Position numbers and translations under genes: made by a program
Shown: positions 14,516 to 36,894 of the stretch, one piece after another
Layout: every line of letters begins with the position of its first letter
Position numbering within the stretch: position 1 is the stretch's first letter
Source of the DNA: an uncultured Owenweeksia sp.
GTDB taxonomy: Bacteria > Bacteroidota > Bacteroidia > Flavobacteriales > Schleiferiaceae
Direction: 5' to 3'
DNA: 64,000 nt
Assembly (NCBI GenBank): GCA_937146805.1
Contig: CAKZRR010000003.1
Span: forward strand, 6,332 to 70,331
Notes under the pieces: generated by a model
The model's input: the letters and a program-made list of their open reading frames with translations, nothing else
Database searches by the model: none
What the model was told of the DNA's origin: nothing

Positions 14516-14574
14516 GCCTTTAGCCCCCACTTTTTTAATTACTTTGCACCAAAGCTCACTCGCTAAATTTTACA

Positions 14575-15603: not shown

Positions 15604-15605
15604 TT

Positions 15606-19107: not shown

Positions 19108-19113
19108 GCAGTG

Positions 19114-19121
19114 TACCTTTG
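19114..19121 (+). promoter_or_regulatory. -7 promoter box
   Basis: TACCTTTG 4 nt before ATG 19126. Confidence 0.6.
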
Positions 19122-19125
19122 CGGA

Positions 19126-20313
19126 ATGAATGTTACGCAACGCCAATTATTTTTACAGCATCAAGCTCAAACTACCGATTTTCCGCTTTCGTTGGAAATA
19201 GAAAAGGCAGAAGGCAGTTATTTGTTTGATAACCAAGGTAAAAAATATTTAGATCTAATATCTGGAATTTCAGTTAGCAACGTAGGTCACCGTCACCCTA
19301 AAGTGGTTACGGCCATTAAACAGCAAGTGGATAAATACATGCACCTTATGGTGTACGGTGAGTATATTCAAACACCACAAGTAGCCTTAGCCACTAAACT
19401 AGCTGAGCTACTAGGCCCTCAGCTAAACGCAACCTATTTTGTGAACTCCGGCAGCGAAGCTACTGAGGGTGCCATGAAATTAGCCAAACGCGCTACCGGA
19501 AGATTTGAAATTATTAGTCTTAAAAATGCCTACCACGGCAGTACACAAGGCGCTTTATCCATTATTGGAGATGAGGAATTTAAGCGCGGGTTTAGACCTT
19601 TACTACCAGCTACACGTGCCATTCGTTTTAATGAGGAAAGTGACCTCAGCCAAATTACGACAGCCACTGCAGCCGTGATCGTAGAACCTGTAATGGGCGA
19701 AGCGGGCTATCTTAAACCCCAGAAAAACTATTTAAAAGCATTGCGCGAAAAATGCACGGAAGTAGATGCATTATTAATTTTTGATGAAGTACAAACAGGC
19801 TTTGGCCGAACCGGTAAAATGTTTGCCCATCAGCTTTTTGGGGTAACTCCAGATATTATTACCCTGGCCAAAGGAATGGGAGGCGGCATGCCTATAGGAG
19901 CGTTTGTTGCAAGCAAAACGCTGATGGATACATTAAAAGAAAATCCAATTCTGGGTCATATAACCACTTTTGGAGGGCACCCTGTAAGTTGTGCTGCCGC
20001 CTTAGCCTGCATTGAAGTTATTGAAGAAGAAAAACTTGTTGATACGGTTAACGCGAAATCAGAATTGTTTAAAAGACTACTAGTACACCCCAACATAAAG
20101 GAAGTACGCGGCCAAGGCTTAATGCTGGCATTACAATTAACTGATTTTGAAGAGGTACAGAAGGTTATTGATTTCAGCTTAGAGAGAGGTGTTATTTCTG
20201 ATTGGTTTTTATTCTGCGATAGCGCCATTAGAATTAGTCCACCATTAAACATTACGGAGCAGGAAATAAAAGAAGCTTGTGAGGTGCTCGTAAAAGCGGT
20301 TGCCGCGCTTTAG
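19126..20313 (+). CDS. Class III PLP aminotransferase (ArgD/acetylornithine-like)
   Basis: NSGSEATEGA, AYHGST, EPVMGEAG, FDEVQTGFGRTG, TLAKGMGGG, TTFGGHP. Confidence 0.9.
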   Translation: MNVTQRQLFLQHQAQTTDFPLSLEIEKAEGSYLFDNQGKKYLDLISGISVSNVGHRHPKVVTAIKQQVDKYMHLMVYGEYIQTPQVALATKLAELLGPQLNATYFVNSGSEATEGAMKLAKRATGRFEIISLKNAYHGSTQGALSIIGDEEFKRGFRPLLPATRAIRFNEESDLSQITTATAAVIVEPVMGEAGYLKPQKNYLKALREKCTEVDALLIFDEVQTGFGRTGKMFAHQLFGVTPDIITLAKGMGGGMPIGAFVASKTLMDTLKENPILGHITTFGGHPVSCAAALACIEVIEEEKLVDTVNAKSELFKRLLVHPNIKEVRGQGLMLALQLTDFEEVQKVIDFSLERGVISDWFLFCDSAIRISPPLNITEQEIKEACEVLVKAVAAL

Positions 20314-20566: not shown

Positions 20567-22843
20567 CTATCTAATGAGCAAAACATGCCCCTTTAGTTCT
20601 TGGGGCCCAACCTTGGCCACATAAAAATAAGTCCCATCTGAATGGTTATTCCCCGTCCAACAATCACTAGGATTATTACTCTTAAACACATTCACGCCCC
20701 AGCGGTTGTAAATATTTAACTCAAAGCATTGCGAAAAACCTTCACTACTTTCTACATAAAAGCAATCGTTCAAACCATCCCCATTAGGTGTAAACACATT
20801 TGGCACTACCATCGATTGACCTTGTGTAGTATCCACAACTAACACTTTGCTAACCGTGCCTTGGCAACCTGAATTGCTTTCTATATCCAACGTTACTGTT
20901 ACATTTCTTCCATTCTCCATCTCCAAAAAAGTTGACTCATCATTACTAAACTCTTTGCCCTCAATTCGCCAACTATAATATTTCGCACCAACCGTTTGAT
21001 TATCCAGCTGCACAACTATGCCTTTACAACTTACTTGAAAGGAATAATCAAAAACTACTTCAGGAGCTTGTACAACCTCTATTTGAACACTATCCGCACC
21101 AAAACATCGAGTAACATCGTTTACTTTAATCCAATATTTTCCAGGCAATAAATATCTATGAGATATTCCTACTCCACGCTCTGCCGCAATTTGCTGTACG
21201 GTATCAGACCCATCTCCAAAATTCCAATACCAACTGGTATTCCTACCCACATTTGGGTATAATGTAAAACTTTCACCTACGCATAAGAGATCGTTAAAGT
21301 CCCTAAACTTTACTTTCCTTCCCTCTGTCTTTTTTATATAAAACGAAACCGAATCTTGAGGTATTGGGCCGCTTTCTCCTAAACAATAACCATATGCCGG
21401 CATATCAAAAAAGTTTTTTGTTTTTTTCATATAACTAAAATGATAACCCGTAAAACCCTCAGCCGAAGTCTCTAAAACATGAGTATTGTCATCAATTTCT
21501 ATTTCAGCATAACTCCATGCAGGATGGCTTGCATAGGTTTGCCAAACACTTGGTTGTAAAACTTGCCCATCTAAAGTAAAAGAGCCTGTCGATTGAGTCG
21601 GTGTATAAAGTGCCACCATATGAGATACTCCATAATTTCCAATAAAGGGTTTTAAAACACTTCGTTTTATTAACTCATTACTACCGGCTACGTTTATGCT
21701 AAACCCTGAAAACACCGAGGAGTTAAGTCTTGTAGAGTCCAATACCCAAGGTGTATTACGAGTAAGCATTAATTGCACCGGTTTACTAGCTGTAATTACC
21801 GCCTCGCCCAACCAACAAGTATCTAATTGATAACTTTTGTTGCGCCAACCAATTAACTGACCGTTTATAAAAATAGCGGTACTATCATGTAATGCCATAA
21901 TACTATAAAGACTTGCATGATGATTTAACATTTGATTGACTAAGAACATAGTATCTCCAACGGAGTTAGGCTTAACCTGCTCGTAGGTCTCTTTTCTCAT
22001 TGTAGATCGTGCAGAGAAACTGGAACAGTCTCCCCAAATATTGCTAGGCGTTCCTGCAAAAAGCAGAATAGGTTTATTTAAACCTTTTACTGTGCTACCA
22101 GAGTAACTTCGATTTTTGAGCTTAACGGATAATAGGGTATCGTATTCAGAATAGCTATGGAACGCATCACCCGATTCCATTTGTGGATAAAAAAATGTAT
22201 CAACCGTTAAGGGAGTTAATGAAAACGGGGTTGTCGATTTACCGTTTAAACGTATTGCCACTTGGGCAGAATCAAACGGTGTATAAGCCCAAAACTGCAT
22301 GGCTCGATGTTGGTTGGTTAATGCACTTGGGAGACCTTTCCGCATGAAGTTAGGCCCTGTTAGCCAATAATCTTTTTGAGCTGCAATTAAAGGCCCAATA
22401 GCCGTTGCTTCCGTATTTACACAATCAGTTTGATGAGCAGCGTATCCTCCCAACGAATCTAACCTGTTAATATCCGTAGCCTGTACCACTTGCACTGGAA
22501 ATTTACTTTTAACCGTTACACCTAAGGGCAGCACTCGACCAATAACCCCAGTATAATGAGGTAACTTCACTAATAACACGCTGTCCTTTTCAAGCCAAAA
22601 ATCAAGTCTAAAACCTATTTCAGGCACCTCCACAAAACCGCAGGTTGGGGTGGCCGCGGTAATCTGTACCACACGCTTTCTTGGCATACCACTCCCTGCA
22701 ATTCCATCAACCCCTAAGTAAGGGAATGAAAAATTAGTACCCGCACTGAAAAAAGGGGTGTTCTGAGCTTGTAATCCGAGCGAAAGAAATAGAAAAACCC
22801 CTATCCCAAAAAAGGATAGAGGTTTCATATTTAACAAATCCAT
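20567..22843 (-). CDS. T9SS type-B-CTD secreted protein with IgGFc-binding-like N-terminal domain and PKD domains
   Basis: Signal peptide; IMALHDST.IFING..ITASKPV (IgGFc_binding-like); WNFGDG PKD; C-terminal VPNVFTPNGDGLND...IYNRWG...DGTYFY. Confidence 0.85.
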   Translation of the reverse strand: MDLLNMKPLSFFGIGVFLFLSLGLQAQNTPFFSAGTNFSFPYLGVDGIAGSGMPRKRVVQITAATPTCGFVEVPEIGFRLDFWLEKDSVLLVKLPHYTGVIGRVLPLGVTVKSKFPVQVVQATDINRLDSLGGYAAHQTDCVNTEATAIGPLIAAQKDYWLTGPNFMRKGLPSALTNQHRAMQFWAYTPFDSAQVAIRLNGKSTTPFSLTPLTVDTFFYPQMESGDAFHSYSEYDTLLSVKLKNRSYSGSTVKGLNKPILLFAGTPSNIWGDCSSFSARSTMRKETYEQVKPNSVGDTMFLVNQMLNHHASLYSIMALHDSTAIFINGQLIGWRNKSYQLDTCWLGEAVITASKPVQLMLTRNTPWVLDSTRLNSSVFSGFSINVAGSNELIKRSVLKPFIGNYGVSHMVALYTPTQSTGSFTLDGQVLQPSVWQTYASHPAWSYAEIEIDDNTHVLETSAEGFTGYHFSYMKKTKNFFDMPAYGYCLGESGPIPQDSVSFYIKKTEGRKVKFRDFNDLLCVGESFTLYPNVGRNTSWYWNFGDGSDTVQQIAAERGVGISHRYLLPGKYWIKVNDVTRCFGADSVQIEVVQAPEVVFDYSFQVSCKGIVVQLDNQTVGAKYYSWRIEGKEFSNDESTFLEMENGRNVTVTLDIESNSGCQGTVSKVLVVDTTQGQSMVVPNVFTPNGDGLNDCFYVESSEGFSQCFELNIYNRWGVNVFKSNNPSDCWTGNNHSDGTYFYVAKVGPQELKGHVLLIR

Positions 22844-22848
22844 TGCCT

Positions 22849-25269
22849 TTATTTCAAAATCAACTTCTGGGTTAATTTAGTGCCGGCCTCAAAACTTACT
22901 TTAACAAAGTACAAGCCCGCAGGTATATTTTGGCAATCTAAAACAAGGTTTTTAACTATATCAATGGACACTTCACGCAGCACCTTTCCTTCTACATTTA
23001 CTAATTGCACTATTTCTGCTTTGTTTGTTAGTCCTCTTATTTCAACTTGGTCCTTAGCAGGATTAGGGAACAACACAAAACTTTGATTTACAATTTCTCC
23101 AAAACCTAAACCTTTATCAATACCCAAGGCCAGTGGCAACAGGTAATTACTGGCCGCTGTGGGCATATTTAAAGCAGTGCCTTCAAAAGTATTTAACACG
23201 GTAAAACCCATGTTAAAAGGGGTCGCAGGCAAACTAAAATTCTCGTAAACACTAAAAGCATAACCCGTATCCCCAGTAACGGATACCGTGTACTCATCGT
23301 TGGCATTTAAGGACACATTCATTTGCAAACTAACTAGTTCTGTAAAAGGTTTACCTAAGGTTAACACTTGGTGGTGAATTTCAGCTTGAGTCTTATCATG
23401 TATTTTTAGATTAAGCTCATAGCCTCCCGTTTTTCCAAACAAATCAACCAAACCGGGAATAGCTACGCTTTGCAACGTCACATTTTGATTAACCGTAAAC
23501 TGCACACCTGCACTACCCGTAAATATTACTGGGCTGTTTTGGTAATTGCCATTACCCATGGTTACTATAGCCAAATTAGCTCCATTAGGCACACCAATGG
23601 TATCACTTAGCTCCTTACAGTTTCCCTTACTAATACTTACTTGATAAACACCTCCACTAAATGGTGTAAGAGTATCGTAAGGATAGGCAAAGGGAACACC
23701 GTTGTAATACCATGTATGGTGCACTCCAAGGTTAGAGTTTGTTAAAACTAGCTGACCTCCTGTAAAGTTTAAAACAACTGGAGTCAAGGTGTCCATCATA
23801 ACAAATACCGAATCTTGGTAGCCCGGGGATTGAGAATCGGAGAGATAATAATACTGTGATTTCGTTACTACGGTGCTGGGGTTTGATTGTGTGCTATTAA
23901 AAGAGGCATCTGCAGATGTCCATTGAAAATTCCCACTTTTAGTCGTTCCACTAAATTGGACGCTATCGCCAACACAAGCTCTCAAGGTATCTCCATTGAT
24001 ATTAGCGGTTGGCACCACGCGTATCAAAAATGCCAAATCGGTATGTGCCGGAAAAGGGCAAACATCATTACTAAACTTCACATACAAAGCATGTCTTGAG
24101 TTTCCTGTTAAAACATGCTCTCCTCCAATTACCCATTTAAGTTGCACCGTGTTGGTAAGTGAAGTTGTATATCCAGTTTGTGGAGATATGGGATTTAATG
24201 TTGCCTTTACGCTGTAGTTACTAGACCCTAAAAAGGGTGCTGCAAATGCAGAACCTCTTGCCGAGGCAACAATATTCGCCAAAGTGGTATCCAGTCTCAT
24301 TTGACTGCTAGTAGCCGTAATATCTAAGGAAACGGTATCTCCTACACAGGCATCTATATAGTGTGTTTCACTATCTGTTTTAGTAATTGGATGGCTATTA
24401 TTAGCCACTAAAAAAGCGGGAGGCACTTGTTGGGTTATACTTCCTTTATACACAACGGCAAGATCTCTGTATACTTTTGATAGCAGCACACCTTTTCTCC
24501 ATTGTTGGATTTCAACGGCATACACATAACTGCCATTATTACCCGAGTTAATTCGTGTTTTAACAATACCAGTTTCATGATTAATAGTAGTTAACCCGTT
24601 ACTTGCATTGGTAGCCGAGTTCGGAAAGGGTTGCGAATAACTGTAACCACTGGAAAAGTTTACGGTTGTGGTCGCTCCATCTTTAGGTGTAGAGAAATCT
24701 ACATAAATAGAATCACTAGGGTTGTTGCTCATTGCACCCGTATTAAACGAAGCCGAATCGCTGGAAATAATATAACCGCTACTTTCTGAAAAATAAGGAG
24801 AAGGGTTCGTACATCCTCCAAAGTTTGTATACATAATAGAGCGGAGATAAAAAGCTCCGGTGGGGCCATTTCTGTTAGTACCCGATCGGCAACAATCAAA
24901 ATAACTAAACTCCCAACCTGCAGCAGGCGGTGTCCCAGATAGTACTATAGGACTACTGCGATAGGTGCCACGTCTTATAGCACCATTACCAGGAGTAGAC
25001 CAGCTACAGGCCACAGATCCAGGACCAACACAACTTGGAGAAATTTCTACACTACTTACTTGAGAGCAAACAATAACCCCTTGTGGGCCGGTAAGTGAAA
25101 CGGTAGATGGTGGGATTGCTGCGGGACCAGCACACTCAAAATATAAAACGGTTTGAAAGATATAACCTCCACTTGGTGTACACTCCCATGTAATTTCGCC
25201 ACCTAATAAGTGGGTAGCACTGGCAGCAAAAGAAGAAAGCATAATGGCTAAAGAAACGAGATACTTCAT
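22849..25269 (-). CDS. T9SS type-A-CTD secreted protein, array paralog 1
   Basis: Signal peptide, ATHLLGGEITWEC, DCCR motif, C-terminal FPNPAKD...GLYFVKV...KLILK. Confidence 0.85.
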   Translation of the reverse strand: MKYLVSLAIMLSSFAASATHLLGGEITWECTPSGGYIFQTVLYFECAGPAAIPPSTVSLTGPQGVIVCSQVSSVEISPSCVGPGSVACSWSTPGNGAIRRGTYRSSPIVLSGTPPAAGWEFSYFDCCRSGTNRNGPTGAFYLRSIMYTNFGGCTNPSPYFSESSGYIISSDSASFNTGAMSNNPSDSIYVDFSTPKDGATTTVNFSSGYSYSQPFPNSATNASNGLTTINHETGIVKTRINSGNNGSYVYAVEIQQWRKGVLLSKVYRDLAVVYKGSITQQVPPAFLVANNSHPITKTDSETHYIDACVGDTVSLDITATSSQMRLDTTLANIVASARGSAFAAPFLGSSNYSVKATLNPISPQTGYTTSLTNTVQLKWVIGGEHVLTGNSRHALYVKFSNDVCPFPAHTDLAFLIRVVPTANINGDTLRACVGDSVQFSGTTKSGNFQWTSADASFNSTQSNPSTVVTKSQYYYLSDSQSPGYQDSVFVMMDTLTPVVLNFTGGQLVLTNSNLGVHHTWYYNGVPFAYPYDTLTPFSGGVYQVSISKGNCKELSDTIGVPNGANLAIVTMGNGNYQNSPVIFTGSAGVQFTVNQNVTLQSVAIPGLVDLFGKTGGYELNLKIHDKTQAEIHHQVLTLGKPFTELVSLQMNVSLNANDEYTVSVTGDTGYAFSVYENFSLPATPFNMGFTVLNTFEGTALNMPTAASNYLLPLALGIDKGLGFGEIVNQSFVLFPNPAKDQVEIRGLTNKAEIVQLVNVEGKVLREVSIDIVKNLVLDCQNIPAGLYFVKVSFEAGTKLTQKLILK

Positions 25270-25403
25270 GGTATGGGTTTTTGGATTACAAACAATAGTA
25301 CGATTTTTCCGAAATAAAGAAACCTCTGGATTAGTTAACGATTGGTTCGGGAGAATTAACGGCTGTTTGAATTCATTCTATTCCAGGAGCAAGGGTGTAA
25401 AGT

Positions 25404-27827
25404 TTACTCTATCAAAAATTTATGAGAAACGGCTGCCCCATTGTGTAAATAAACCCGAACGAGATAAATCCCAGGCGGCACATTGGCACAGTTTAAAATT
25501 AAAGGTTTTGTAGTGGCCTGCACCGCCATACTTCTTAAAACCTCTCCGTTTACGTTTATTAATTCTACTTTCTCAGCAACACTAATCAAACCCCTTATCT
25601 CTACTCTATCTTTAGTAGGATTGGGGAATAAAGAGAACTCATACCCTTTTGGGTGTTTTACATTCAAACCCTTATTAGTACCCAAGGATATAGGAAGTAA
25701 ATAGTTACTAGTAGTGGTTGGCATGCTAAATGAAAATCCTTCCACCGCTCTAACTACCGTAAAGCCAATGTTAAAAGGAGTTGCAGGCAAGGTAAAGTTC
25801 TCAAAAATGCTAAACGCATAACCTGAATCTCCAGTAAGTGCTAGAGTGTAAACTTTACTTGCTACCAGCGAAAAATTTAGCGGTAGCCGAAGTAACTCCT
25901 TAAACGGAGCGGCTAGACTTACAGATTGATTGTAAACCTCAACCTGTAAATCGTCATAAATTTTAACATTTAAGTCATATTGATTTATTTGTCCATTTAA
26001 ATTTACCAAACCAGGAATGGTTAAACTCCTTAAGTCTATATTTTTATTAACCTTAAAGTCAATACCTAAACTACCAATTGAAGCAATTTCATTCCCTACA
26101 TACTGTCCGTTACCCATTGTAGTTACGGCTAAGTTTGTTCCATTTAAAAGTGCCAAAGTATCAGTAAATTTTCTGCATCCCCCTTTAACAACACTGGCCT
26201 GATACAAACCTCCGCTAAAACGAGATAAAGTATCATATGGATAAGCAAAAGGAATCTCATTGTAAAACCAAGTACGGCTGGCCACTAAATTAGGGTTTAC
26301 CATGGCCAGCTCCTTACCATTAAAACCCAAGGTAACGGGCAAAAGCGTATCCACCTCCACGTACACAACCTCTAAAAATCCGGGATTGTGCGGATCAGAA
26401 AGGTAATAATACTGTGAGCTATCCGCTCTAATTTTAGGATTTGGCATTTGACTGCTAAAAGTAGCGTCTGCCGATGTCCATAAGAAACTTCCACTCCGCG
26501 TAATACCGCTCAGCTCAACACTATCACCAAAACAGGCTCCAATAGTATCTCTACCTATACTTGGTGCCCCTGATACTTTTATCATAAAAACCATATTAGT
26601 TATAGCAGGATAAGGGCATACATCATTACTAAATTTTACATATAAAGCGTGCCTCTTATTGCCATTCAACACATGCTCTCTTCCAATTACCCATTTTAGG
26701 CGAACATTGTTGGATACAGAAGATGTCAAACTCATCTGAGGGCTTACGGGGGTAAGTGTAGCCTTTTGGCTATAGTTACTTGCTCCTAAAAAAGGCGCAT
26801 CAAACGCATACCCACGGCCAGTAGCGATAATATCTGCCAAAGTTGTATCTAGGCGCATCTGAGTACTTGTAGCCTCTATATCAATCAAAATGGTATCACC
26901 CATAGAAACATCTAAATTGTACGTTTCCTGATCCACCCTTGAAACAGCATGGCTGGAATTAACAATTTGAAAGCTCGGTACCACCTGCTGCGCTGCTGTG
27001 GCAGAATACATGGCAACATAATCTCTGTATATTCTAGACAACAAAACACTATTCTCCCATTGCTCAATAACAATCCCGTAGCAATAAAGACCTGAGGTTC
27101 CGGCATGTACATGGGTTTTAATAATACCAGTACTATGATTAATAGAAGTTAAACCATTACTAGCATTAGTATTGGTATTTGGAAATGGTTGTGAGTAACT
27201 AAAGTTTGGGCTAAAACCAACAGAACTAACTGAATTTATCCTAGGACTTGCGAAATCTATATATAGTGAATCTGTAGAATTATTACTAGCAGCACCAGTT
27301 GCTAGTGTTATAGAGTCTCCGGAAATAATATGACTAGCACTCTCAGCAAAATGAGGCGAATCCTTTTGACATTGAGACGAACTACCGTACATTACTGAGC
27401 GTAGATAAAAATTTCCAGCCGCACCATTCTCTAAACCAATCTGGCGGCAACATTCAACAAAGCTAAACTCCCAACCCAATGGAGGAGGTGTTCCACTAAG
27501 CGAAATTGGCGGGCTTCGGTAAATATAGCGCCTTATAGCACCCTTGGTTCTTGCGGTAGTACCACAAGAAACTGCCCCCGGGCCAGTGCAGCTTGGTGAA
27601 ATCTGAACACCTCCAATTCTAACACATGTTATATATCCCTGCGGCCAAGTAAGAACAAGTGATGGCGGAACTGGAGCGGAGCCCGTCCCACATTCTTGAT
27701 ACAAAACTGTTTCAAAAATAAAAGACCCGTTCGTGGTGCATTCCCAGGTAATTTCTCCCCCTACCAAATGACCTGCCCTAGTGCTAAAAAAGGATAATAA
27801 AGCTACAATAATAGTTAGGTTCCTCAT
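25404..27827 (-). CDS. T9SS type-A-CTD secreted protein, array paralog 2
   Basis: HLVGGEITWEC, ECCR, FPNPTKD...GIYLVRV...KFLIE; colinear with paralog 1. Confidence 0.85.
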   Translation of the reverse strand: MRNLTIIVALLSFFSTRAGHLVGGEITWECTTNGSFIFETVLYQECGTGSAPVPPSLVLTWPQGYITCVRIGGVQISPSCTGPGAVSCGTTARTKGAIRRYIYRSPPISLSGTPPPLGWEFSFVECCRQIGLENGAAGNFYLRSVMYGSSSQCQKDSPHFAESASHIISGDSITLATGAASNNSTDSLYIDFASPRINSVSSVGFSPNFSYSQPFPNTNTNASNGLTSINHSTGIIKTHVHAGTSGLYCYGIVIEQWENSVLLSRIYRDYVAMYSATAAQQVVPSFQIVNSSHAVSRVDQETYNLDVSMGDTILIDIEATSTQMRLDTTLADIIATGRGYAFDAPFLGASNYSQKATLTPVSPQMSLTSSVSNNVRLKWVIGREHVLNGNKRHALYVKFSNDVCPYPAITNMVFMIKVSGAPSIGRDTIGACFGDSVELSGITRSGSFLWTSADATFSSQMPNPKIRADSSQYYYLSDPHNPGFLEVVYVEVDTLLPVTLGFNGKELAMVNPNLVASRTWFYNEIPFAYPYDTLSRFSGGLYQASVVKGGCRKFTDTLALLNGTNLAVTTMGNGQYVGNEIASIGSLGIDFKVNKNIDLRSLTIPGLVNLNGQINQYDLNVKIYDDLQVEVYNQSVSLAAPFKELLRLPLNFSLVASKVYTLALTGDSGYAFSIFENFTLPATPFNIGFTVVRAVEGFSFSMPTTTSNYLLPISLGTNKGLNVKHPKGYEFSLFPNPTKDRVEIRGLISVAEKVELINVNGEVLRSMAVQATTKPLILNCANVPPGIYLVRVYLHNGAAVSHKFLIE

Positions 27828-27938
27828 AAGGCTCGTTTATATTAAATGAACTAAATACTTTTATGTTTTCCTCTTTATCCAAAGTTGGTCAAATAAAGCT
27901 GGCTAACCTTATCCGTCAAAAACAATCGCCCGTTAAAA

Positions 27939-30368
27939 TTACTCTATCAAAAGTTTACGAGATACGGTTGCTCCTTTGCTTAAATGAACCCGAACCATAT
28001 AAACCCCAGACGGTACATTGGTACAGTTTAAAATTAAAGGCTTAGTGTTGGCCGTTACAACCATGCTACTTATTACCTGACCATTTACATTTACTAATTC
28101 TACTTTTTCCGCTTCATTGCTTAGTCCCACCAACTGCACCTCTGCTTTGGTAGGATTTGGAAACAAACGGAATACACTATAATCCATTTTATTTATCTCC
28201 ATACCTTTATCTATACCAAGCGCAAGAGGCAGCATAAAATTACTTTTTTGAATAGGTATTCCCAAAGGCAAACCTTCTGTAGCCTTCAAAACGGTAAAAC
28301 CTATATTAAAAGGAGTTGCCGGTAAACTAAAATTCTCATAAACACTAAAAGCATAACCCGAATCACCTGTAAGAGCAATAGTATATGTACTATTCGCTTG
28401 AAGCGGCACGTTGGCTCTAATCCTAAACAACTCCCTAAAGGGACTCCCTACACCCACGGTTTGATTGTGCACTTCCAGCTGTAAATGATTATAAATCTTT
28501 AAGTTCAAATTATAATCGTTCGCCTGTCCGTTCAAATTTATCAAACCCGGAATGGTTAAACTTGTAAGGTTGACGTTTTTATTAACTCTAAACTGGATAC
28601 CTATACTCCCAAGTGCTCTAACTGGCTCTTTTCTATAATTACCATTGCCTATGGTTGTAACCGCCAAATTTGCCCCATTCAAGAGTCCTAAAGTATCCGT
28701 AAAATCTTTGCACCTTCCTTTTACAATACTTGCTTGATATAAACCTCCACTAAAGGAGGTTAAGGTATCGTAAGGATATGCAAAGGGAATTTCATTGTAA
28801 AACCATGTGCGTATAACATTTATATTGTTATTTGATATTTGCAATGCACCACCATTACTGCTTAAACTAATGGGTGAAATCGTATCTACCTCAACATACA
28901 CTGAGTCAATAAAACCTGGATTTTGAGGATCCGAAAGAAAGTAATATTGCGAGTTAGTCGCCACTAACTCTGGTGCCGCCAGCTGGCTGCTCAATGTTGC
29001 GTCTGCCGATGTCCATTGAAAATTGCCGCTTTTAGTGCTTCCCATTAATTTAATACTATCATATCGACACACTCTTAAAGAATCATCTTTTGCTTTTACA
29101 ATTGATTTCACCCGAACCAAAAAGGCCTTATTGTTTCTAGCTGGAAAAGGGCAAATATCATTGCGCAGTTTAACGTTAATGTAATGAGGTTGCGAACCAC
29201 GATGTGTATGTTCCGCACCCGTTACCCAATTAAACCTTACCCTATTAATAAAGGCGTTTGTGTAATTTGCCTGAGGTGCAATTGGGATTAATAAAGCCTG
29301 TGATAAATATCCACTTACACCTCCAAAAGGAGTGTCTAATACAAGCCCATTAGCTTCAAAAGTCATTTCAGTGATGGTGAAGTCAGGGCGAGATTGTGTC
29401 GTTGAAGCTTCTAAATTAAAGGTGAGTGTATCACCTTCATACAAATCAAAAAAATACGTATTTGGGTCAGGATTACTAAAGGAATAATTATTATTAGTTA
29501 CCTGAAAGTAAATTGGTTGCTGAGCTGTAGAGTATCCATAAATAGCAACATTATCCTTAAATATTTTAGATAGCAATTTACCATCACGCCATTGCTGCAC
29601 TTCTACACAATACATATAATTACCATTAACAGCCGTATCAAAATTTGTTGTAATAATGCCTGTTTGATGATTGATAGTGGTCAGTCCATTTACCGAATCA
29701 CTCATTGTATTTGGAAAAGGCTGAGTATAAGTATAACCCGCCCCTAAAGTTGTTAGTACTAGTGAATCATCCCACGAATTAGCAAAGTCAATATAAAGAG
29801 AATCAGAAGAATTTTTTCTGCTTACATCAATGGTAAATGTTGCCGAATCTCCCGCCATTAAATAAATCGGGTTTTCATTGAAGGAAGGGGACGAGTTATT
29901 ACAAATGCCGTTACCGCTATTGTACATGAGGGCCCTTAAATAAGTATTGTTACTCGTTCCTGATATATTTACTACTGAGGATGGCTTGCAACATTGTTGG
30001 TAACTAAATTGCCACCCAGCAGCAGGTGGTGAACCATTTAGTGTAATTGGAACACTCTTGTAAAGATGACGCGCTACCGCTCCAGTACCTTTTGGTGATA
30101 CAATGCAGGCTAAACCCGTTCCCCAACAACTTGGAGAAACATCACTTGGTGTACCCACCAAACTACAATTGATAATACCCTGCGGACCCGAAACATCTAC
30201 ATTGGCAGGTAAACCAGCCCCCCCAATACCACACTCTCTGTATAAAGCTACATTAAAAACATACTTTCCCGATGCCGTGCACTCCCAGGTAATTTCGCCA
30301 CCAAAGAAATGCGTGGCTTGCACAAAAAATGACGAAAAAACAATAATTACAGTAATGCAGTACTTCAT
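27939..30368 (-). CDS. T9SS type-A-CTD secreted protein, array paralog 3
   Basis: ATHFFGGEITWEC, QCCK, FPNPTKA...GVYMVRV...KLLIE. Confidence 0.85.
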   Translation of the reverse strand: MKYCITVIIVFSSFFVQATHFFGGEITWECTASGKYVFNVALYRECGIGGAGLPANVDVSGPQGIINCSLVGTPSDVSPSCWGTGLACIVSPKGTGAVARHLYKSVPITLNGSPPAAGWQFSYQQCCKPSSVVNISGTSNNTYLRALMYNSGNGICNNSSPSFNENPIYLMAGDSATFTIDVSRKNSSDSLYIDFANSWDDSLVLTTLGAGYTYTQPFPNTMSDSVNGLTTINHQTGIITTNFDTAVNGNYMYCVEVQQWRDGKLLSKIFKDNVAIYGYSTAQQPIYFQVTNNNYSFSNPDPNTYFFDLYEGDTLTFNLEASTTQSRPDFTITEMTFEANGLVLDTPFGGVSGYLSQALLIPIAPQANYTNAFINRVRFNWVTGAEHTHRGSQPHYINVKLRNDICPFPARNNKAFLVRVKSIVKAKDDSLRVCRYDSIKLMGSTKSGNFQWTSADATLSSQLAAPELVATNSQYYFLSDPQNPGFIDSVYVEVDTISPISLSSNGGALQISNNNINVIRTWFYNEIPFAYPYDTLTSFSGGLYQASIVKGRCKDFTDTLGLLNGANLAVTTIGNGNYRKEPVRALGSIGIQFRVNKNVNLTSLTIPGLINLNGQANDYNLNLKIYNHLQLEVHNQTVGVGSPFRELFRIRANVPLQANSTYTIALTGDSGYAFSVYENFSLPATPFNIGFTVLKATEGLPLGIPIQKSNFMLPLALGIDKGMEINKMDYSVFRLFPNPTKAEVQLVGLSNEAEKVELVNVNGQVISSMVVTANTKPLILNCTNVPSGVYMVRVHLSKGATVSRKLLIE

Positions 30369-30379
30369 ATGATTAAAAT

Positions 30380-32815
30380 TTACTCTATCAAAAGTTTACC
30401 AGAAATAGCAGCTCCTTTGCTTAAATAAACCCGAACCATATAAACCCCAGGCGGAACATTGGTACAGTTTAAAATTAAAGGCTTTGTAGTGGCCGTTATA
30501 ACCATACTTCTTATTACCTGGCCATTTACATTTACCAATTCTACTTTTTCGGCTTCATGGGTTAGTCCAGCTATTTCTAATTGATCTTTAGCAGGATTTG
30601 GGAATATACGTAAACCTGATCTTAAATTTCCCTCAAGACCAACCCATTTCCATTGATCAACACCCAAGCCCAGCGGCAGCAAATAATTACTTGAAGAATC
30701 TGGGAAAATCAGCGCCCCTCCTTTTTTCGCTTCCAATACCGTAAAACCAACATTGTAAGGTGTAGCGGGTAAATTGAATTTTTCAAACACACTAAAAGCA
30801 TAGCCTGTATCACCAGTAAGAGCTATTGTATAGATTTCGTTTGCTACTAAAGGCACGTTGGTGCTTAGGTGAAACAACTCCGGAAAGGGGTTCCCTAAAG
30901 TTACTTGCTGGCTGTGAATTTCTGCTTCCTGCTGATCGTATATTTTTAGGGTTAAATCATAACCACCCGTTTTTCCATTTAAATTCATTAAACCTGGCAC
31001 ACTCACACTTTGCAGTGTTAAAGCTTGATTCATGGTAAAACTAACGCCTATGCTACCAGTAATACTAGCAGGACCATTTAAGTAATTACCATTACCGGTA
31101 CTTACCACTGCTAAGCTTGAATTATTACTAGTAAGGTTTATCACTGGACTTGAAAGGCTACAGTTACCGTTGGTGATTGAAACCTGATAACTACCCAAGC
31201 CAAAAGGCGTTAAAGTATCGTAGCTATAAGTAAAAGGAACCCCATTATAATACCAAGTTGGATTAGGCGTATTATTAGGGTCATTAAATACTATTTGAGT
31301 TCCATTAAACACAAACGATATAGGCGCTATCGTATCTGCATTAACGTAAACCGAATCCATAAAACCTGGGTACTGCGGATCGGTAAGGTAGTAATACTGC
31401 GAACTACCAGAGGCAAAGCTAGGGCTGGCCAATTGACTGCTAAACGTAGCATCTGCAGATGTCCATTGAAAATTACCGCTACGAGTACTTCCTCTTAACA
31501 AAATACTATCGCCTGTACAAACATTTAAAGTATCGTTATCAGTCCATACCGTGGGATTTACACTAACTAATACAGCCACGTTGCTACGTGCAGGAAACGG
31601 ACAAATGTCATTTTGCAGCTTTATATTGAATATATGCTTCACTTTACCACTTGTAACATGTTCGGAACCCAGCTTCCAATTAAACCTAACCTTGTTAGTA
31701 CCTACAGATGTATAGCCCGATTGTGGCGCTATAGGATATAAACTAGCTTTTTCTAGATAAGTACTTGGGCCTGCAAAAGGCGTATCTAAGGCAAAACCTC
31801 GTGCACTTACAACTATAGCGGCCAATGTAGTATCTGGGCGCATTTGTGTGGTAACCGACTCTAAATCAAAATTGAGCGTATCTCCCTCGTATAACTCAAA
31901 TTGAAAGGTTTCTCGATCGCTATTAGTAAAGGTATGGTTACTATTGGTTACCGAAAAAGCGGGTGCTATCTGTGGTGTATCAGGTATAAACACGGCTGCA
32001 CAATCGCGGTATATTTTAGACAGCAATACACCCGATCGCCATTGTTGTAACTCCACACAATAGGCATAACTTCCAGAAACACCATTAGCAATGTTTGTCT
32101 TTATTACTCCCGTTTCGTGGTTAATAGTTGTTACACCATTAGCACTCATACTACCGTTATTGGGAAAAGGTTGCGTATAACTGAACCCAGCTGCAAAAAT
32201 TATACTTGTGGAGCTATCCTCCATTGGTTGTGCAAAGTCAAAATAAACAGAATCAGATGGATGGCTAATTGCTCCCGAACTAAAGGTAGCCGAATCTCCG
32301 CTCATTAGATAAGTTGCGTTTTGGACAAAAACAGGTGATTCATCATTACACAAACCCGAAACATTCGAATACATTATTGATCTCAAATGAAAAGGATCTC
32401 CATTTCTTAGCAAATTTCTCACTGTTGATGGTCGGCAACATAGATTCCAGCTAAACTCCCATCCCCTACTTGGTGGGGTTCCTGTTAACGAAATTGGCGT
32501 GCTTTGATATTTTTGACGTAACACCGCACCGGTCCCACTAGGAGATGCTAAACATGCAATATTACTACCTAGGCAATTTGGCGAAATATCTAGGGCAGTA
32601 CCTACTTTATTACAGGTAATTGTGCCTTGCGGCCCCAAAACACTCAGAACATTTGGAAGCGATGCGGTATTAACCCCACACTCTTTATAAAGCACTACAT
32701 TAAACACGTATTGCCCCGAAGGTGTGCACTCCCATGTAATTTCACCCCCTAAAAGGTGGGTGGCCTTGGCAGTAAAACAGGATATTAAAATAGCGAGGGT
32801 GATAAGGTATTTCAT
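30380..32815 (-). CDS. T9SS type-A-CTD secreted protein, array paralog 4
   Basis: ATHLLGGEITWEC, LCCR, FPNPAKD...GVYMVRV...KLLIE. Confidence 0.85.
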   Translation of the reverse strand: MKYLITLAILISCFTAKATHLLGGEITWECTPSGQYVFNVVLYKECGVNTASLPNVLSVLGPQGTITCNKVGTALDISPNCLGSNIACLASPSGTGAVLRQKYQSTPISLTGTPPSRGWEFSWNLCCRPSTVRNLLRNGDPFHLRSIMYSNVSGLCNDESPVFVQNATYLMSGDSATFSSGAISHPSDSVYFDFAQPMEDSSTSIIFAAGFSYTQPFPNNGSMSANGVTTINHETGVIKTNIANGVSGSYAYCVELQQWRSGVLLSKIYRDCAAVFIPDTPQIAPAFSVTNSNHTFTNSDRETFQFELYEGDTLNFDLESVTTQMRPDTTLAAIVVSARGFALDTPFAGPSTYLEKASLYPIAPQSGYTSVGTNKVRFNWKLGSEHVTSGKVKHIFNIKLQNDICPFPARSNVAVLVSVNPTVWTDNDTLNVCTGDSILLRGSTRSGNFQWTSADATFSSQLASPSFASGSSQYYYLTDPQYPGFMDSVYVNADTIAPISFVFNGTQIVFNDPNNTPNPTWYYNGVPFTYSYDTLTPFGLGSYQVSITNGNCSLSSPVINLTSNNSSLAVVSTGNGNYLNGPASITGSIGVSFTMNQALTLQSVSVPGLMNLNGKTGGYDLTLKIYDQQEAEIHSQQVTLGNPFPELFHLSTNVPLVANEIYTIALTGDTGYAFSVFEKFNLPATPYNVGFTVLEAKKGGALIFPDSSSNYLLPLGLGVDQWKWVGLEGNLRSGLRIFPNPAKDQLEIAGLTHEAEKVELVNVNGQVIRSMVITATTKPLILNCTNVPPGVYMVRVYLSKGAAISGKLLIE

Positions 32816-32911
32816 GGTAAATAGGATTTACGAATTCTATTTACAATAATACGAAAATTCCGAAATACACCGCTTACTCATCATTGGCGGGGCAGTTTAA
32901 TGCAGGTAATA

Positions 32912-33055
32912 TCAATATATTAGAATGGGGTCCGCCAAAAAAACCTGCCATACCGCCTCACTGGTTTTTCCAAACTTTTTAGGAGCTTGCACCAATATAA
33001 TGTCGGCTTCAAATTTGGGTCTATCAGTAGCAGTGGCTACAGGCCCCAGCATACC
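32912..33055 (-). pseudogene. 5'-truncated remnant of the gene at 35493-35993 (last 47 codons)
   Basis: Hand translation GMLGPVATATDRPKFEADIILVQAPKKFGKTSEAVWQVFLADPILIY* vs GVLGHVATAGDRPKFEADVILVKAPKKFGKLSEPVWQVFLTNPVLRY* (36/47 identical, no indel); TAA in frame immediately upstream. Confidence 0.88.
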
Positions 33056-33153
33056 TTAAATGAACCAACTACCCCCCTTTTTAGCTACAGGAATATATTA
33101 CCTAAAGCTTAAAAACAGTAGCTTAGCACCTCACAAGTTGCTCATAGAATAGA

Positions 33154-35445
33154 ATGATCCAATTAAAAAAAACAACTTTCTTCCTGCTCCTAATGCTTAC
33201 CTTAGGAGTGGGAAGTTTTACTATAACAGCCCAAAACTCAAATGTTCCTTATTTTACCTCAGGTACTGATTTTTCCTTTCCTAACTTGGCACGGAAAACA
33301 ATTGTACCATCGTTCCACAGAACCGAAAAATCCAAATCTATAGTACAAATAACCGCTCAAAACAATACCTGCGGACGATTGTGGATACCGGGGCAAGGAT
33401 TTGAAAAAAAATTCAGCCTTTTGGCCGATAGCACCGTGCTAGTTACTTTACCGGATGATACGATTAGACGAGATACAAATAGTGATGTTGGTATTTTTAT
33501 AAAAACTACGTATCCAGTACAGGTAGTTTTTGCGACAGACGTAGGCCTACTGGACAGCTCTAAAGCCGGTGGATTTTTTGCACCGCTTACCGACTCCATT
33601 AACACTGAAGCTACCGCAATTACTCCAATTGTAAGAGCGTCAGATCAATATTTCTTAAACATCCCTAATATCCCCAATGAATTCCATCCTTTTGAGGCTT
33701 GGCATCAATTATGGGTGCACGCCCCTATGGAGGCTATTTCGGTAGAAATTGAACTCAAAAACGCTCCTCTTTCTTACATAATTTCGCCAAACGTACCCTT
33801 TCTACAATCAATACCTTTTGGATATTGTTTTTATGGAGTTACCGCAGGACTAACAATCCTACCTCCAAGACCGGCTTTAGAAGGAAGTAGTTTTTTTGAA
33901 TTGGACAATAAAGATTTTTTAATGTTTGGGGGATGTCAACATGTTACCTACGGGAATTGTATGGACATCTCACCCTTTTCGACACTGGGTTCTAACAGGA
34001 AGCTTACTTTCGATCAATCAAAGCCGCTAACTTTTGGCGACACGATGCATATGGCCGCTCAAATCCTAAATCATTATCCCAATCTGTATTCCATTTTAGC
34101 TTTAAATGACAGCACAAGCATCTACCTAAATGGCACCTTTTTAGCTCTGCTTAATAGTGGAGAACAAATAGATACGTGCGCTACGGAGGCATTAATCATA
34201 ACCTCTACTAGGCCTACACTTTTAACCTTAACACGTAGTGCTATAGGGACAGATTTCCCGGGACTTCATCCCAGCTCATCATCTAACTCTCCCTTTTCAA
34301 TTACAATGCCGGGCAGTAACGAGTTGATGAAAAGAAGCATTTTAAAACCATTTAGTGAAAGTTATAAAAACACCTATGTTGTGGCCCTTTTTACTAAAAG
34401 TGGCGATACAAGCAATTTTACTTTGAATGGACAAACTCTACCCTTTGGCAATTGGAAAACATTTGCCGCAAGGCCTGGCTGGGCTTGGACGCAAATAGAG
34501 ATAAGCGATAAAACACATATCCTAGAAAGTAGTGGAGAAGGTTTTATAGGCTACCACTACTCCTATGCTAAAAAAAGACCCAACTATTACTTCTATCCTT
34601 CTTACGGTTATTGCTTAATTGAAAGCAAGGCTGTTACAGAAGACTCCTTACAGTTTTATATTAAAACTGAAAATACTAGCAAGCAGATATTGAAAAATTT
34701 TCACGAGAGCATATGTGTTGGAGACAGCGTACAATTGTTTGCAAATGCCGCACGTCATACCAGTTGGCATTGGAATTTTGGTGATGGAAATGACACCCTA
34801 CAACAAGTTGGTAACACAAGTGGCAAGCCCATTTCACATACTTACACTAACCCAGGGCAATACTGGCTTTTTGTAACAGACACCAGCGGATGCGCAACTG
34901 GTGATAGTGTTCGTATTGAGGTATTACCTGCACCCGCTCCTTCCTTTACCTATACAGCTTTTGAAACTTGTGAAGAAGGAAGTAAAATTGAACTACACAA
35001 CAGTAGCACTGGCGCTAGCTCTTACAGCTGGAGTTTACCCGAGGGCATCAGCAATGAAGAATCCCCCTCATTCTTTTACAGCGGTTCAGAGCCATTCAAA
35101 ATCAGTTTAATTGCCAAACACAACAATTGCAGCTCATCACCTATTACTAAAATTATAAATCCGCAAACCGATATTTTTACGGATACCAAAATACCTAATG
35201 TTTTTACCCCAAATAATGATGGATTAAATGATTGTTTTGGAGTTAACAATTTAATAGGAAAGTATGCCGAATGTTTTGAGCTTTCAATTTTCAACAGATG
35301 GGGCAGTATGGTATGGAGCACAACGAACCCAAATGGTTGTTGGAATGGCTTAACAGATAATAAGCCTAACGCCTCAGGAACTTACTATTATATTCTTAAA
35401 GTTGCCAACTCAGATTACAAAGGCCATTTGTATTTATCCCGATAG
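33154..35445 (+). CDS. T9SS type-B-CTD secreted protein (IgGFc-binding-like + PKD), paralog of 20567-22843
   Basis: Shared blocks SGTDFSFP, VQITA, NTEATAI, KRSILKPF, YGYCL, WNFGDG; CTD IPNVFTPNNDGLND...IFNRWG...GTYYY. Confidence 0.85.
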   Translation: MIQLKKTTFFLLLMLTLGVGSFTITAQNSNVPYFTSGTDFSFPNLARKTIVPSFHRTEKSKSIVQITAQNNTCGRLWIPGQGFEKKFSLLADSTVLVTLPDDTIRRDTNSDVGIFIKTTYPVQVVFATDVGLLDSSKAGGFFAPLTDSINTEATAITPIVRASDQYFLNIPNIPNEFHPFEAWHQLWVHAPMEAISVEIELKNAPLSYIISPNVPFLQSIPFGYCFYGVTAGLTILPPRPALEGSSFFELDNKDFLMFGGCQHVTYGNCMDISPFSTLGSNRKLTFDQSKPLTFGDTMHMAAQILNHYPNLYSILALNDSTSIYLNGTFLALLNSGEQIDTCATEALIITSTRPTLLTLTRSAIGTDFPGLHPSSSSNSPFSITMPGSNELMKRSILKPFSESYKNTYVVALFTKSGDTSNFTLNGQTLPFGNWKTFAARPGWAWTQIEISDKTHILESSGEGFIGYHYSYAKKRPNYYFYPSYGYCLIESKAVTEDSLQFYIKTENTSKQILKNFHESICVGDSVQLFANAARHTSWHWNFGDGNDTLQQVGNTSGKPISHTYTNPGQYWLFVTDTSGCATGDSVRIEVLPAPAPSFTYTAFETCEEGSKIELHNSSTGASSYSWSLPEGISNEESPSFFYSGSEPFKISLIAKHNNCSSSPITKIINPQTDIFTDTKIPNVFTPNNDGLNDCFGVNNLIGKYAECFELSIFNRWGSMVWSTTNPNGCWNGLTDNKPNASGTYYYILKVANSDYKGHLYLSR

Positions 35446-35492: not shown

Positions 35493-35993
35493 CTAATACC
35501 TTAAAACTGGATTCGTCAAAAAAACTTGCCAAACGGGCTCGCTTAGTTTTCCAAACTTTTTTGGGGCTTTTACCAGAATAACATCGGCCTCAAATTTGGG
35601 TCTGTCTCCCGCAGTAGCTACATGGCCTAAAACACCTTTCTTTTTAGTAAATACAATTTCAACGGGCGCTCCGCTTTTACTTTGCATTACACTGCGCACC
35701 AAGGTAACGATAGAATCAGTATTAAGCGATTCATTGGGTTTTATATAAAAAAGCTCTATTACCTTGGTTTCTACATAGCGTTGGTTAGATACATTACCCG
35801 AATTACTATAATGCACCTGCGTAAAATCAACCAAACTATACGCCTTTTGAATACCCGCTTCAATAAAGGCAGCACTATCTAAAGCGCTTAAGCTACGCTT
35901 TACAAAACGTTTTTCCATTACCTCATAACTGCTTTGGCTTACAGCACTTTTGCCAAAGCTTAAGGCCAATAGTAAAATCCATAGTTTATTCAT
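35493..35993 (-). CDS. Secreted hypothetical protein
   Basis: Signal peptide MNKLWILLLALSFGKSAVS; ATG overlaps the stop of the upstream gene (ATGAATAA); a homologous remnant exists at 32912. Confidence 0.75.
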   Translation of the reverse strand: MNKLWILLLALSFGKSAVSQSSYEVMEKRFVKRSLSALDSAAFIEAGIQKAYSLVDFTQVHYSNSGNVSNQRYVETKVIELFYIKPNESLNTDSIVTLVRSVMQSKSGAPVEIVFTKKKGVLGHVATAGDRPKFEADVILVKAPKKFGKLSEPVWQVFLTNPVLRY

Positions 35994-36894
35994 TTTCATA
36001 ATCTTCTGTTTTTTGCACAAATCGAAGTCTATAGATTTTCCCTTCCTGATATTGGATATCCTGAATTTCTAAATTTTTGAGACTATTTACAGGCAGTATT
36101 AGTCGGTCTATAAATTCGTGCTTGTTCAACATTTCAATTCCTTGATGCTTTGGGTGGCTCTGAAAAATTTTAGAGTCGTCATGAATGGCTTCTTCCAATT
36201 GCATCCTTCTCTTTTCCCAATTATCCGATTGGGCTCTCGAAAAATAATTGAGCATCAGGGCATAATCATCTGGCCAAAGCTCTACCCACACCGTGTCACT
36301 TTTACTTTTATCTAAAGCCATTGAAAAAGGCTTATAATACGCCCCATCAATTTGTAGTGTATCTAGTTGATTGACCTTTAATTGCAAAGCCCCTCCCTTT
36401 ACAACGGTTCTGCTTTTGGCTGCTGTAAAAGTCAATGTCTTTAAATCTATTAGTTGGTGCGTATAAGCATCCTTAAATACCATTACTGTATAATTAGCAC
36501 GGCTGTTCCACCAAAAAACAGCCAACAATAAAACCAATACGGGTAGCAGCAACCAGGCTACTTTTACCTTGGCCTTTGGTTTATTTTCGGTTGGTTTTAC
36601 TTGATTTTTAAATTTAAAATCATCCCAGTTTTTATATCCGCAATAGCGGCTCAATAAATTAAGCACATCTACCCGTGGCATTTTTTCACTTTGATTTTTA
36701 AAATGGAGGTACACCCATTTTTCACTTACCGTGCTTTGGCAGCTTTGCTCTAAATCAATTTGAAAATTATGAATATCGGCTATAGACCATTCTTTAAAAT
36801 CTTTTCTGATTTCAAGCTTGGTTTCAACCCTTATTCTCAACTTTTTTTTGAGTTGATTGAAATAAATACGCTCTGTAGTTTTAGTGGAATCCAA
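35986..36894 (-). CDS. Putative membrane-anchored regulator: XRE-like HTH + TM + periplasmic domain
   Basis: N-terminal TVSEKWVYLHFK...MPRVDVLNLLSRYCGY (XRE-like pattern), Lys-rich linker, single TM VAWLLLPVLVLLLAVFWW; TTG start. Confidence 0.65.
   Translation of the reverse strand: MDSTKTTERIYFNQLKKKLRIRVETKLEIRKDFKEWSIADIHNFQIDLEQSCQSTVSEKWVYLHFKNQSEKMPRVDVLNLLSRYCGYKNWDDFKFKNQVKPTENKPKAKVKVAWLLLPVLVLLLAVFWWNSRANYTVMVFKDAYTHQLIDLKTLTFTAAKSRTVVKGGALQLKVNQLDTLQIDGAYYKPFSMALDKSKSDTVWVELWPDDYALMLNYFSRAQSDNWEKRRMQLEEAIHDDSKIFQSHPKHQGIEMLNKHEFIDRLILPVNSLKNLEIQDIQYQEGKIYRLRFVQKTEDYENE

Follow-up and report, generated by a model that had tools for sequence, protein, structure and literature searches.

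The window analysed here is a stretch of 64,000 nucleotides from the genome (3.16 Mb, 58 contigs) of an uncultured Owenweeksia sp. (NCBI GenBank assembly GCA_937146805.1, contig CAKZRR010000003.1, positions 6,332 to 70,331 of the forward strand). Its positions 20567-35445 are occupied by six long open reading frames (ORFs), all intact and with no internal stops, which encode type IX secretion system (T9SS) cargo. An earlier note on this DNA had described six large ORFs of two families, with four type-A paralogs bracketed by two type-B paralogs, and all particulars of that description hold. The genes, designated B1, A1 to A4 and B2, are as follows (aa, amino acids; nt, nucleotides):

20567..22843, minus strand: B1, type-B T9SS cargo, 758 aa
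22849..25269, minus strand: A1, type-A T9SS cargo, paralog 1, 806 aa
25404..27827, minus strand: A2, type-A T9SS cargo, paralog 2, 807 aa
27939..30368, minus strand: A3, type-A T9SS cargo, paralog 3, 809 aa; 11 nt downstream of A4
30380..32815, minus strand: A4, type-A T9SS cargo, paralog 4, 811 aa; the copy used for modelling
33154..35445, plus strand: B2, type-B T9SS cargo, 763 aa; divergent from the A array and inside a 144-nt repeat

Labels are used below where genomes or loci must be told apart: G000 is the genome of the window, G004 a congener, and L001-L004 and L007 are loci of relatives.

Sequence and modelled structure of the type-A proteins

The four type-A proteins were 45-56% identical in pairwise comparisons over their full length, and A4 matched the other three copies at E-values of 1e-254 to 1e-291, far beyond chance. 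A signal peptide was read from the sequence in all four, as a hydrophobic N-terminus with A/V/T-x-A at residues 16-18. The type-A sorting domain, a C-terminal domain (CTD), scored 38.7-45.4 bits with PF18962 (cut-off 27) and 32.6-38.3 bits with TIGR04183 (cut-off 23); beyond this domain nothing in Pfam or NCBIfam matched A1-A4. At the other end of the proteins, H20-x-x-GGEITWEC30 and C126-C127 were invariant in A1-A4 and nearly invariant in 78-96 relatives. His20 (A4: 32756-32758) was kept in at least 90% of 78 aligned relatives and would be position 2 of the mature protein, with cleavage predicted at A18|T/G/S19-H20, directly before the GGEITWEC strand. The conserved residues of the N-terminal module (N-module) of A4 are H20, GG, W28, C46, C81, C88, C126-C127, D188 and G236.

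Relatives of the A genes were found in Owenweeksia, Schleiferiaceae, Cryomorphaceae and other metagenome-assembled genomes of Flavobacteriales. A profile search of cluster representatives returned 1996 at E<=1e-3 and 183 at E<=1e-30; the full architecture of ~800 aa was present in ~45 of the representatives, and most of the others shared only the first ~420 residues. Proteins of the latter sort were often ~1150 aa long and carried type-B sorting domains in the first protein search, and the N-module is common to such ~1150-aa proteins with a type-B CTD in many Flavobacteriales. When 96 N-modules were scanned against Pfam no family was matched, catalytic families included. G000 itself holds at least four further genes with an A-type N-module (C17:208712-212646; C44:23779-25110; C42:25639-26967), among them a tandem pair of 641-660-aa frames, each with a type-A sorting-domain match downstream, and one 1150-aa and one 542-aa open frame.

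A4 was modelled with AlphaFold2 from an alignment of 78 sequences, and its N-terminal 405 residues were also modelled alone. The full-length model was all-beta, with a predicted local distance difference test score (pLDDT) of 91.9. The N-module alone gave a pLDDT of 93.0 and a predicted template-modelling score (pTM) of 0.90, values implying that its three domains pack rigidly against one another. Foldseek searches with the full model returned only matches of low template-modelling score (TM) to arrays of immunoglobulin (Ig) domains, and the domains were resolved only with the separate N-module model and an exhaustive structure aligner (Z, aligner score; rmsd, root-mean-square deviation). The resulting assignment is:

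31550..32761, minus strand: N-module, A4 residues 19-422; Cys-rich, three beta-sandwich domains; model pLDDT 93, no Pfam family
within the N-module, A4 residues ~20-280: domains 1-2, beta-sandwiches that contain the majority of the conserved cysteines; solved structures gave no specific match
within the N-module, A4 residues 280-422: domain 3, a cadherin/Ig-like sandwich of adhesin type, Z 8-10
31130..31549, minus strand: PKD-like and small Ig-like region, A4 residues 423-562; repeat type as in GhpA
A4 residues 421-495: PKD-like domain; ColH PKD domain at Z 9.5, rmsd 2.1 Å, 73 residues aligned
A4 residues 498-562: small Ig-like domain, assigned from the model
30644..31129, minus strand: PHR/lectin-like jelly roll, A4 residues 563-724, assigned by structure search (564-722 there)
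30383..30607, minus strand: type-A T9SS CTD, A4 residues 737-811, assigned by profiles and structure search (733-811 in the latter)

The jelly roll was matched by the PHR domain of MYCBP2 (Z 12.6, rmsd 2.9 Å, 135 residues aligned) and the lectin-like domain of Cwp84 (Z 11.1), as well as by phage tail or tail-tip and baseplate domains at Z ~11; in the Atlas its matches were DUF4082 (TM 0.74/0.67) and Lectin_like clusters (TM 0.69-0.72). The modelled CTD superposed on solved CTDs at Z 9.1-10.6, the best being that of mirolase (Z 10.6, rmsd 1.7 Å), and on the translocon-bound CTDs of NucA, FspA and RemA at Z 9.3-9.7. Among the matches listed, searches with whole models found only contactins, titin, NCAM, protocadherins, GhpA and the like, and the few enzyme entries listed covered a single beta-sandwich part of the A model. 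The Cys-rich N-terminal domain with its GGEITWEC and CC motifs, the beta-rich domains and the CTD, all of which the earlier note had ascribed to the type-A family, are thus confirmed by alignment, profiles and models. Structure prediction and Foldseek, proposed there as a check, gave for type A a chain of beta-sandwich domains that is adhesin-like and has no enzyme fold. As modelled, A4 has the architecture of a surface binding protein.

The remark that none of the six proteins has a recognisable catalytic motif was likewise borne out by Pfam, NCBIfam and the fold searches of the A models, which gave no catalytic family or fold, domains 1-2 being barely covered by the latter. It is nonetheless conceivable that the A proteins are released as soluble binders, or that domains 1-2 hold a catalytic site of unrecognised kind. 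The candidate for such a site would be the nearly invariant His20, directly past the predicted cleavage site, together with conserved acidic residues, and it would lie in the part of the protein (~20-280) for which solved structures offered no specific match. As these two domains were searched only as parts of larger models, the missing match is no sign of a new fold. Every part that was confidently matched is a beta-sandwich of binding type, the whole N-module resembles the extracellular parts of eukaryotic adhesion proteins, and neither Pfam nor NCBIfam, nor the scan of 96 N-modules, pointed to a catalytic family; release and anchoring are not told apart by sequence. We regard this explanation as improbable.

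In the clusters of the AlphaFold database, relatives from bacteria superposed on the N-module at TM 0.66-0.74. Among them, A0A7Y2HEW5 (TM 0.74) has an A-type N-module fused to an endonuclease/exonuclease/phosphatase domain, a fusion which suggests that the module can act as a targeting or binding head for enzymes.

Duplication, probable gene conversion and possible glycosylation in the type-A array

In a tree of 47 full-length proteins, A1-A4 formed one clade with a support of 100 in the Shimodaira-Hasegawa-like approximate likelihood ratio test (SH-aLRT). The expansion is therefore lineage-specific, and the proposal that it arose by tandem duplication is supported. Trees of single segments disagreed with one another, and did so with strong support: domain 3 paired A1 with A2 (100/100), D5-D6 (residues 498-724) paired A2 with A3 (100/98 and 99/96), and the CTD grouped A2, A3 and A4 (84/93). 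In every segment tree the four copies of the window stood together against those of other genomes. Conflict of this kind among copies that always remain together argues for duplication in situ followed by gene conversion, and it indicates that the copies diverged to ~50% identity while segments were exchanged between them.

The array lies between a gene for an FAD-linked oxidase and aminotransferase, VTT, Wzy_C, family 2 glycosyltransferase (GT2) and sulfotransferase genes. All Owenweeksia-like relatives examined have an A gene in this slot. In three relatives and in G004 it is occupied by one full-length A gene and a second A-type gene, which is either full-length or a form of ~490-525 aa without the middle domains. 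A comparison of copy number across relatives, which had been suggested as a check, thus gave one or two A genes at the slot against four here, and none of the sampled genomes other than that of the window had more than two full-length copies. Across Flavobacteriales, genes with the N-module commonly stand in tandem as pairs or triplets.

In Owenweeksia-like genomes the slot always adjoins one glycan cluster (window 13832-20313; L001-L004), which contains a Wzy_C/TPR gene resembling O-antigen ligases, two GT2 genes, sulfotransferases and a Wzt ABC exporter. A functional tie between the type-A cargo and this cluster is conceivable because type-A cargo anchors to a surface glycolipid; synteny at the level of the genus is not sufficient to establish it.

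The O-glycosylation sequon of Bacteroidota is D-(S/T)-(A/I/L/V/M/T) (PMC8550257). It occurs 9-12 times in each of the six proteins, compared with ~2 times in shuffled sequences, and many of the positions are shared between paralogs. Glycosylation of the six proteins is plausible on these counts, which place them in the top 4-8% of long ORFs of G000. Sequon enrichment was also considered as a trait specific to the locus and was rejected, many exported proteins of G000 being equally or more enriched.

The sequon bears on the possibility that the A proteins, alone or with others, form a glycosylated two-dimensional surface layer (S-layer) like that of TfsA and TfsB of Tannerella forsythia, which are T9SS-dependent and O-glycosylated at D-(S/T)-(A/I/L/V/M/T) (PMC4175972, PMC8550257). 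Besides their richness in this sequon, the A proteins have beta-sandwich domains, a rigid N-terminal module (pTM 0.90) and several tandem copies, traits that speak for such a layer. However, no named S-layer family was matched in Pfam or NCBIfam, and no sequence similarity of TfsA or TfsB to the A or B proteins was found. The locus also differs in having four mosaic paralogs together with a second family that carries a type-B CTD. Four mosaic copies at ~50% identity are better explained by a variable repertoire of binders than by a uniform lattice, and there are relatives with only one full-length copy and one truncated copy. The presence of the N-module on many other architectures, one of them with an endonuclease/exonuclease/phosphatase domain, suggests a general binding or targeting module. 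An S-layer therefore appears an unlikely role for the array.

Type-B genes and their position beside the array

B1 and B2 were 40% identical (E 2e-180) and are, by their domains, members of a widespread family with IgGFc_binding and PKD domains and a T9SS sorting domain. In B1 the IgGFc_binding domain spans residues 175-467, the PKD domain 531-575 and the CHU_C type-B sorting domain 679-758; the same three domains are present in B2. IgGFc_binding (PF17517, cut-off 25.6) scored 46.1 bits in B1 and 43.7 bits in B2, the type-B sorting domain PF13585 (cut-off 27) 74.7 and 78.4 bits, and TIGR04131 (cut-off 35) 41.4 and 58.4 bits. The Atlas model of B2, which is of lower confidence, had clusters of PF17517 as all ten of its best feature matches (structure TM 0.74-0.78). 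Signal peptides with predicted cleavage at LQA|Q (B1) and ITA|Q (B2) were found, and both proteins obey the 'Q-rule' of Bacteroidota (predicted cleavage A|Q). The architecture is that of proteins of Bacteroidota and related phyla in which IgGFc_binding is joined, with or without PKD, to a T9SS sorting domain. To our knowledge no member of that family has a demonstrated function, and a search of the literature on IgGFc_binding or PF17517 with T9SS, or on Owenweeksia with T9SS, turned up no publication that deals with either family. In a related Flavobacteriales genome (G031:C3:46129-59940) five genes with an IgGFc_binding domain stand in a row; tandem expansion thus occurs in the type-B family too, and it does so without any tie to the A family.

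The gap of 5 nt (22844-22848) between the stop codon of A1 and the ATG of B1, which had led to the proposal that both classes are co-transcribed, is real. A second in-frame ATG at codon 6 of B1 would give a more typical signal peptide and a gap of 20 nt. Two further features lie at the borders of the array:

22784..22826, minus strand: terminator-like hairpin (stem 14 bp, loop 5 nt) followed by a U-rich tail; the stem is over B1 codons 6-17
32912..33055, minus strand: gene-end remnant, the final 47 codons from a homolog of the 175-aa gene (35493-36020); 96 nt separate its end from the A4 start codon, which lies downstream

The stem of the hairpin begins 23 nt past the stop codon of A1, within the signal-peptide codons of B1. 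Its minimum free energy was -24 kcal/mol (z -3.83), with 1/200 shuffled sequences as stable, and it is kept at the matching place in G004 (L004 11504-11530), where a U-G pair has become C-G. The hairpin could end the transcript of the A array or attenuate B1, and transcription of the array may largely stop before B1. Simple co-transcription across A1 and the body of B1 is therefore doubtful. A scan for sigma-70 promoters returned 38 sites, against 43 in shuffled sequences, with a consensus that is ill-suited to Bacteroidota; in the intergenic regions the Bacteroidota motif TAnnTTTG was found by eye in imperfect matches only, and no promoters were assigned.

B2 is enclosed by a 144-nt direct repeat (32912-33055 and 35493-35638, 74% identical). 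The copy next to A4 is the remnant listed above, in which 36/47 aa are identical to the end of the 175-aa gene and no stops occur. L007 (1-333) has this gene as an intact homolog (74% identical), placed directly upstream of the A gene. From the remnant and from the order in L007 it follows that the ancestral order was small gene, then A, and that B2 was inserted later. The cassette of small genes at 35493-36894 probably stood upstream of the A array originally, as its neighbour and perhaps as its regulator.

An ortholog of B1 (49-55% identical) was found at the matching position in G004 (L004:11478-13720; G004:C1:3399477-3401719). It is spread over three reading frames by two frameshifts, and the adjoining A genes are intact; it could be a pseudogene or the product of a sequencing error.

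These observations bear on the model of the earlier note, in which type-B proteins are the scaffold or anchor for interchangeable type-A subunits, the two being co-transcribed parts of a modular adhesin or surface layer. What speaks for that model is that B1 begins 5 nt after A1 on the same strand, that the order A then B is seen again in G004, and that neither family is enzymatic, both being beta-rich T9SS cargo. An obligate two-component system would be marked by A and B genes that occur together, side by side, from genome to genome. This was not found in a survey of 74 loci and of 41 genomes, 26 of which have the A module and 16 IgGFc_binding: A and B genes adjoin only in G000 and G004, and in all other genomes of the 41 IgGFc_binding genes and A-module genes lie apart. 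No type-B relative was found within 8-10 kb of the A N-module in 73/74 loci, nor a type-B gene in the syntenic loci L001-L003, where the slot holds one or two type-A genes.

The secretion routes also differ. Type-A CTDs are recognised by PorV, and in the model from Porphyromonas gingivalis they are cleaved and the protein is linked to anionic lipopolysaccharide (A-LPS), whereas type-B CTDs bind PorP/SprF-like proteins, so that the two kinds of cargo have separate shuttles and anchors (PMC9143113, PMC12618676). Type-A cargo is in this way anchored covalently by itself and would not need a protein scaffold (PMC9143113). In Flavobacterium johnsoniae type-B substrates are often genetically linked to a PorP/SprF gene (PMC12618676). 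B1 and B2 lack such a link, the window containing no match to PorP_SprF and hence no cognate shuttle gene beside them, and by their gene context they count as the orphan kind of type-B substrate described in PMC12618676.

The scaffold-and-subunit model is thus left unsupported by the rarity of the synteny, the late insertion of B2, the hairpin between A1 and the body of B1, and the separate shuttles and anchors; the frameshifts in the B gene of G004, beside intact A genes, speak against it as well. We consider it very improbable. Of the first reading of the locus, the assignment to T9SS cargo, the adhesin-like character and the duplication stand; the type-B scaffold with interchangeable type-A subunits does not. 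The adjacency of A and B genes here appears to reflect recent rearrangement and not a conserved two-part machine.

Proposed function and comparison with known systems

It is likely, in our judgement, that the locus contains two unrelated sets of T9SS cargo that are neighbours without forming a combined system, and that the type-A genes are a conversion-shuffled array of surface binding proteins. A1-A4 would have arisen by lineage-specific tandem expansion of one ancestral gene at the site between the oxidase gene and the aminotransferase and glycan genes. B1 would have arrived downstream of the array in the common ancestor with G004, and B2 later, by rearrangement. The A proteins would be exported by Sec, with predicted cleavage after A18, and by analogy with other type-A cargo the CTD would then be recognised by PorV and carried through SprA; PorU would remove it and join the new C-terminus to surface lipopolysaccharide. 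Going by the models, the PHR/lectin-like jelly roll would then lie closest to the cell, a stalk would be formed by the two small Ig/PKD-like domains, and the N-module, with its three rigidly packed, Cys-rich domains, would be the distal binding head. Divergence of the duplicated copies and exchange of segments between them would yield a limited set of mosaic variants. For B1 and B2, retention at the surface presumably depends on one of the four PorP/SprF-like proteins that the genome encodes outside the window. G000 encodes SprA (2587 bits), PorV (456 bits) and PorU (1234 bits), all above cut-off, and has four clear PorP/SprF-like genes, on contigs C21, C24, C17 and C44, so both cargo classes can be secreted. 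Given the absence of any enzyme fold and the 9-12 sequons in each, the A proteins are probably glycosylated surface binding proteins. They would be adhesins, or lectin-like receptors whose targets are particles, polymers, or cells of algae or other organisms.

Several points weigh against this interpretation. An A-B interaction specific to the lineage would be compatible with the absence of conserved synteny, and the option of a sequencing error in the B1 ortholog of G004 reduces what its frameshifts can tell. An unrecognised activity is possible in domains 1-2, for which there was no specific match among solved structures. Retention of the A proteins at the surface, as opposed to release, is deduced solely from the type of their CTD, and some type-A cargo of other Bacteroidota is released. 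Exported proteins of G000 are commonly rich in the sequon, and among ORFs with a start resembling a signal peptide the six proteins are only in the top 7-17%.

Type-A cargo of P. gingivalis that depends on PorV and PorU is among the closest known systems. A1-A4 resemble it in having a Sec signal and a CTD above the cut-offs, in the fold of the CTD, and in the machinery encoded in the genome; they differ in their passenger, a previously undescribed combination of domains, and an equivalent of A-LPS is assumed here by analogy.

RemA and SprB of F. johnsoniae are mobile cell-surface adhesins secreted by the T9SS. Like these, the A proteins are large, non-enzymatic T9SS cargo with Ig-like repeats and a lectin-type domain, with several paralogs and predicted surface display, and the CTD structure of RemA (8gl6) was among the structural matches of the A4 CTD. 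No relation in sequence was found beyond the CTD, and the lectin-like domain of the A proteins is of the PHR/DUF4082 type.

Aureispira has a grappling-hook protein, GhpA (PDB 9flp and others; bioRxiv 10.1101/2024.01.29.577165). Outside the CTD it was the only solved protein matched by the A family profile (E 2.6e-37, summed over >30 repeats), and it was also among the top Foldseek matches. A4 alone matched 0 sequences of the PDB, and the family profile was needed to reach GhpA and the solved CTDs. The match falls on profile positions ~389-540 (the PKD/Ig-like D4-D5); the N-module and the PHR-like domain were not matched in the GhpA sequence. GhpA, a giant of 5898 residues with long arrays of Ig-like repeats, assembles into a multimeric hook, whereas the A proteins have ~810 residues (806-811 aa) and share with it only a common type of repeat.

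In the AlphaFold database the whole N-module superposed on extracellular regions of eukaryotic proteins. One annotated as 'Integrin beta-like protein A-E N-terminal domain' gave TM 0.53 (rmsd 6.4 Å), SibA (Q54KF7), from the integrin-beta-like (Sib) adhesion proteins of Dictyostelium, matched residues 20-390 at TM 0.46, ZP-domain proteins matched at TM 0.47-0.50, and SibB was the top Swiss-Prot match of the full A4 model. SibA has been described as an adhesion molecule (PMC3279395). Identity to the Sib and ZP proteins was 10-14%, no sequence-profile link was found, and the likeness is therefore structural only; the remaining architecture of these proteins is different.

Particles, algae and polymers are colonised by marine Flavobacteriales, whose T9SS cargo is for the most part functionally uncharacterised; for one such family the domain architecture is now defined. 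The idea that the neighbourhood of type-A and type-B genes is a conserved two-part machine is corrected. Multi-domain binding proteins displayed by the T9SS are of a kind already known. What is new is an N-module that has no Pfam family and is common in the group, its likeness to eukaryotic adhesion domains, and the mosaic array of four copies. With these traits of the N-module, a copy number that varies from 1 to 4 between close relatives, and the exchange of segments, the array is a reasonable candidate for strain-specific attachment or for recognition by phages or grazers. As a more tentative extension, with the odds clearly against it, the N-module (represented by 183 or more clusters at E<=1e-30, with nearly all representatives from Flavobacteriales-like Bacteroidota) may be a widespread bacterial adhesion head, perhaps related to Sib and ZP proteins, with an array such as this one diversifying the head and the lectin-like domain by gene conversion. 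If that is true, the array would provide a programmable repertoire of surface binding specificities, or an escape from phages or grazers that recognise the A proteins.

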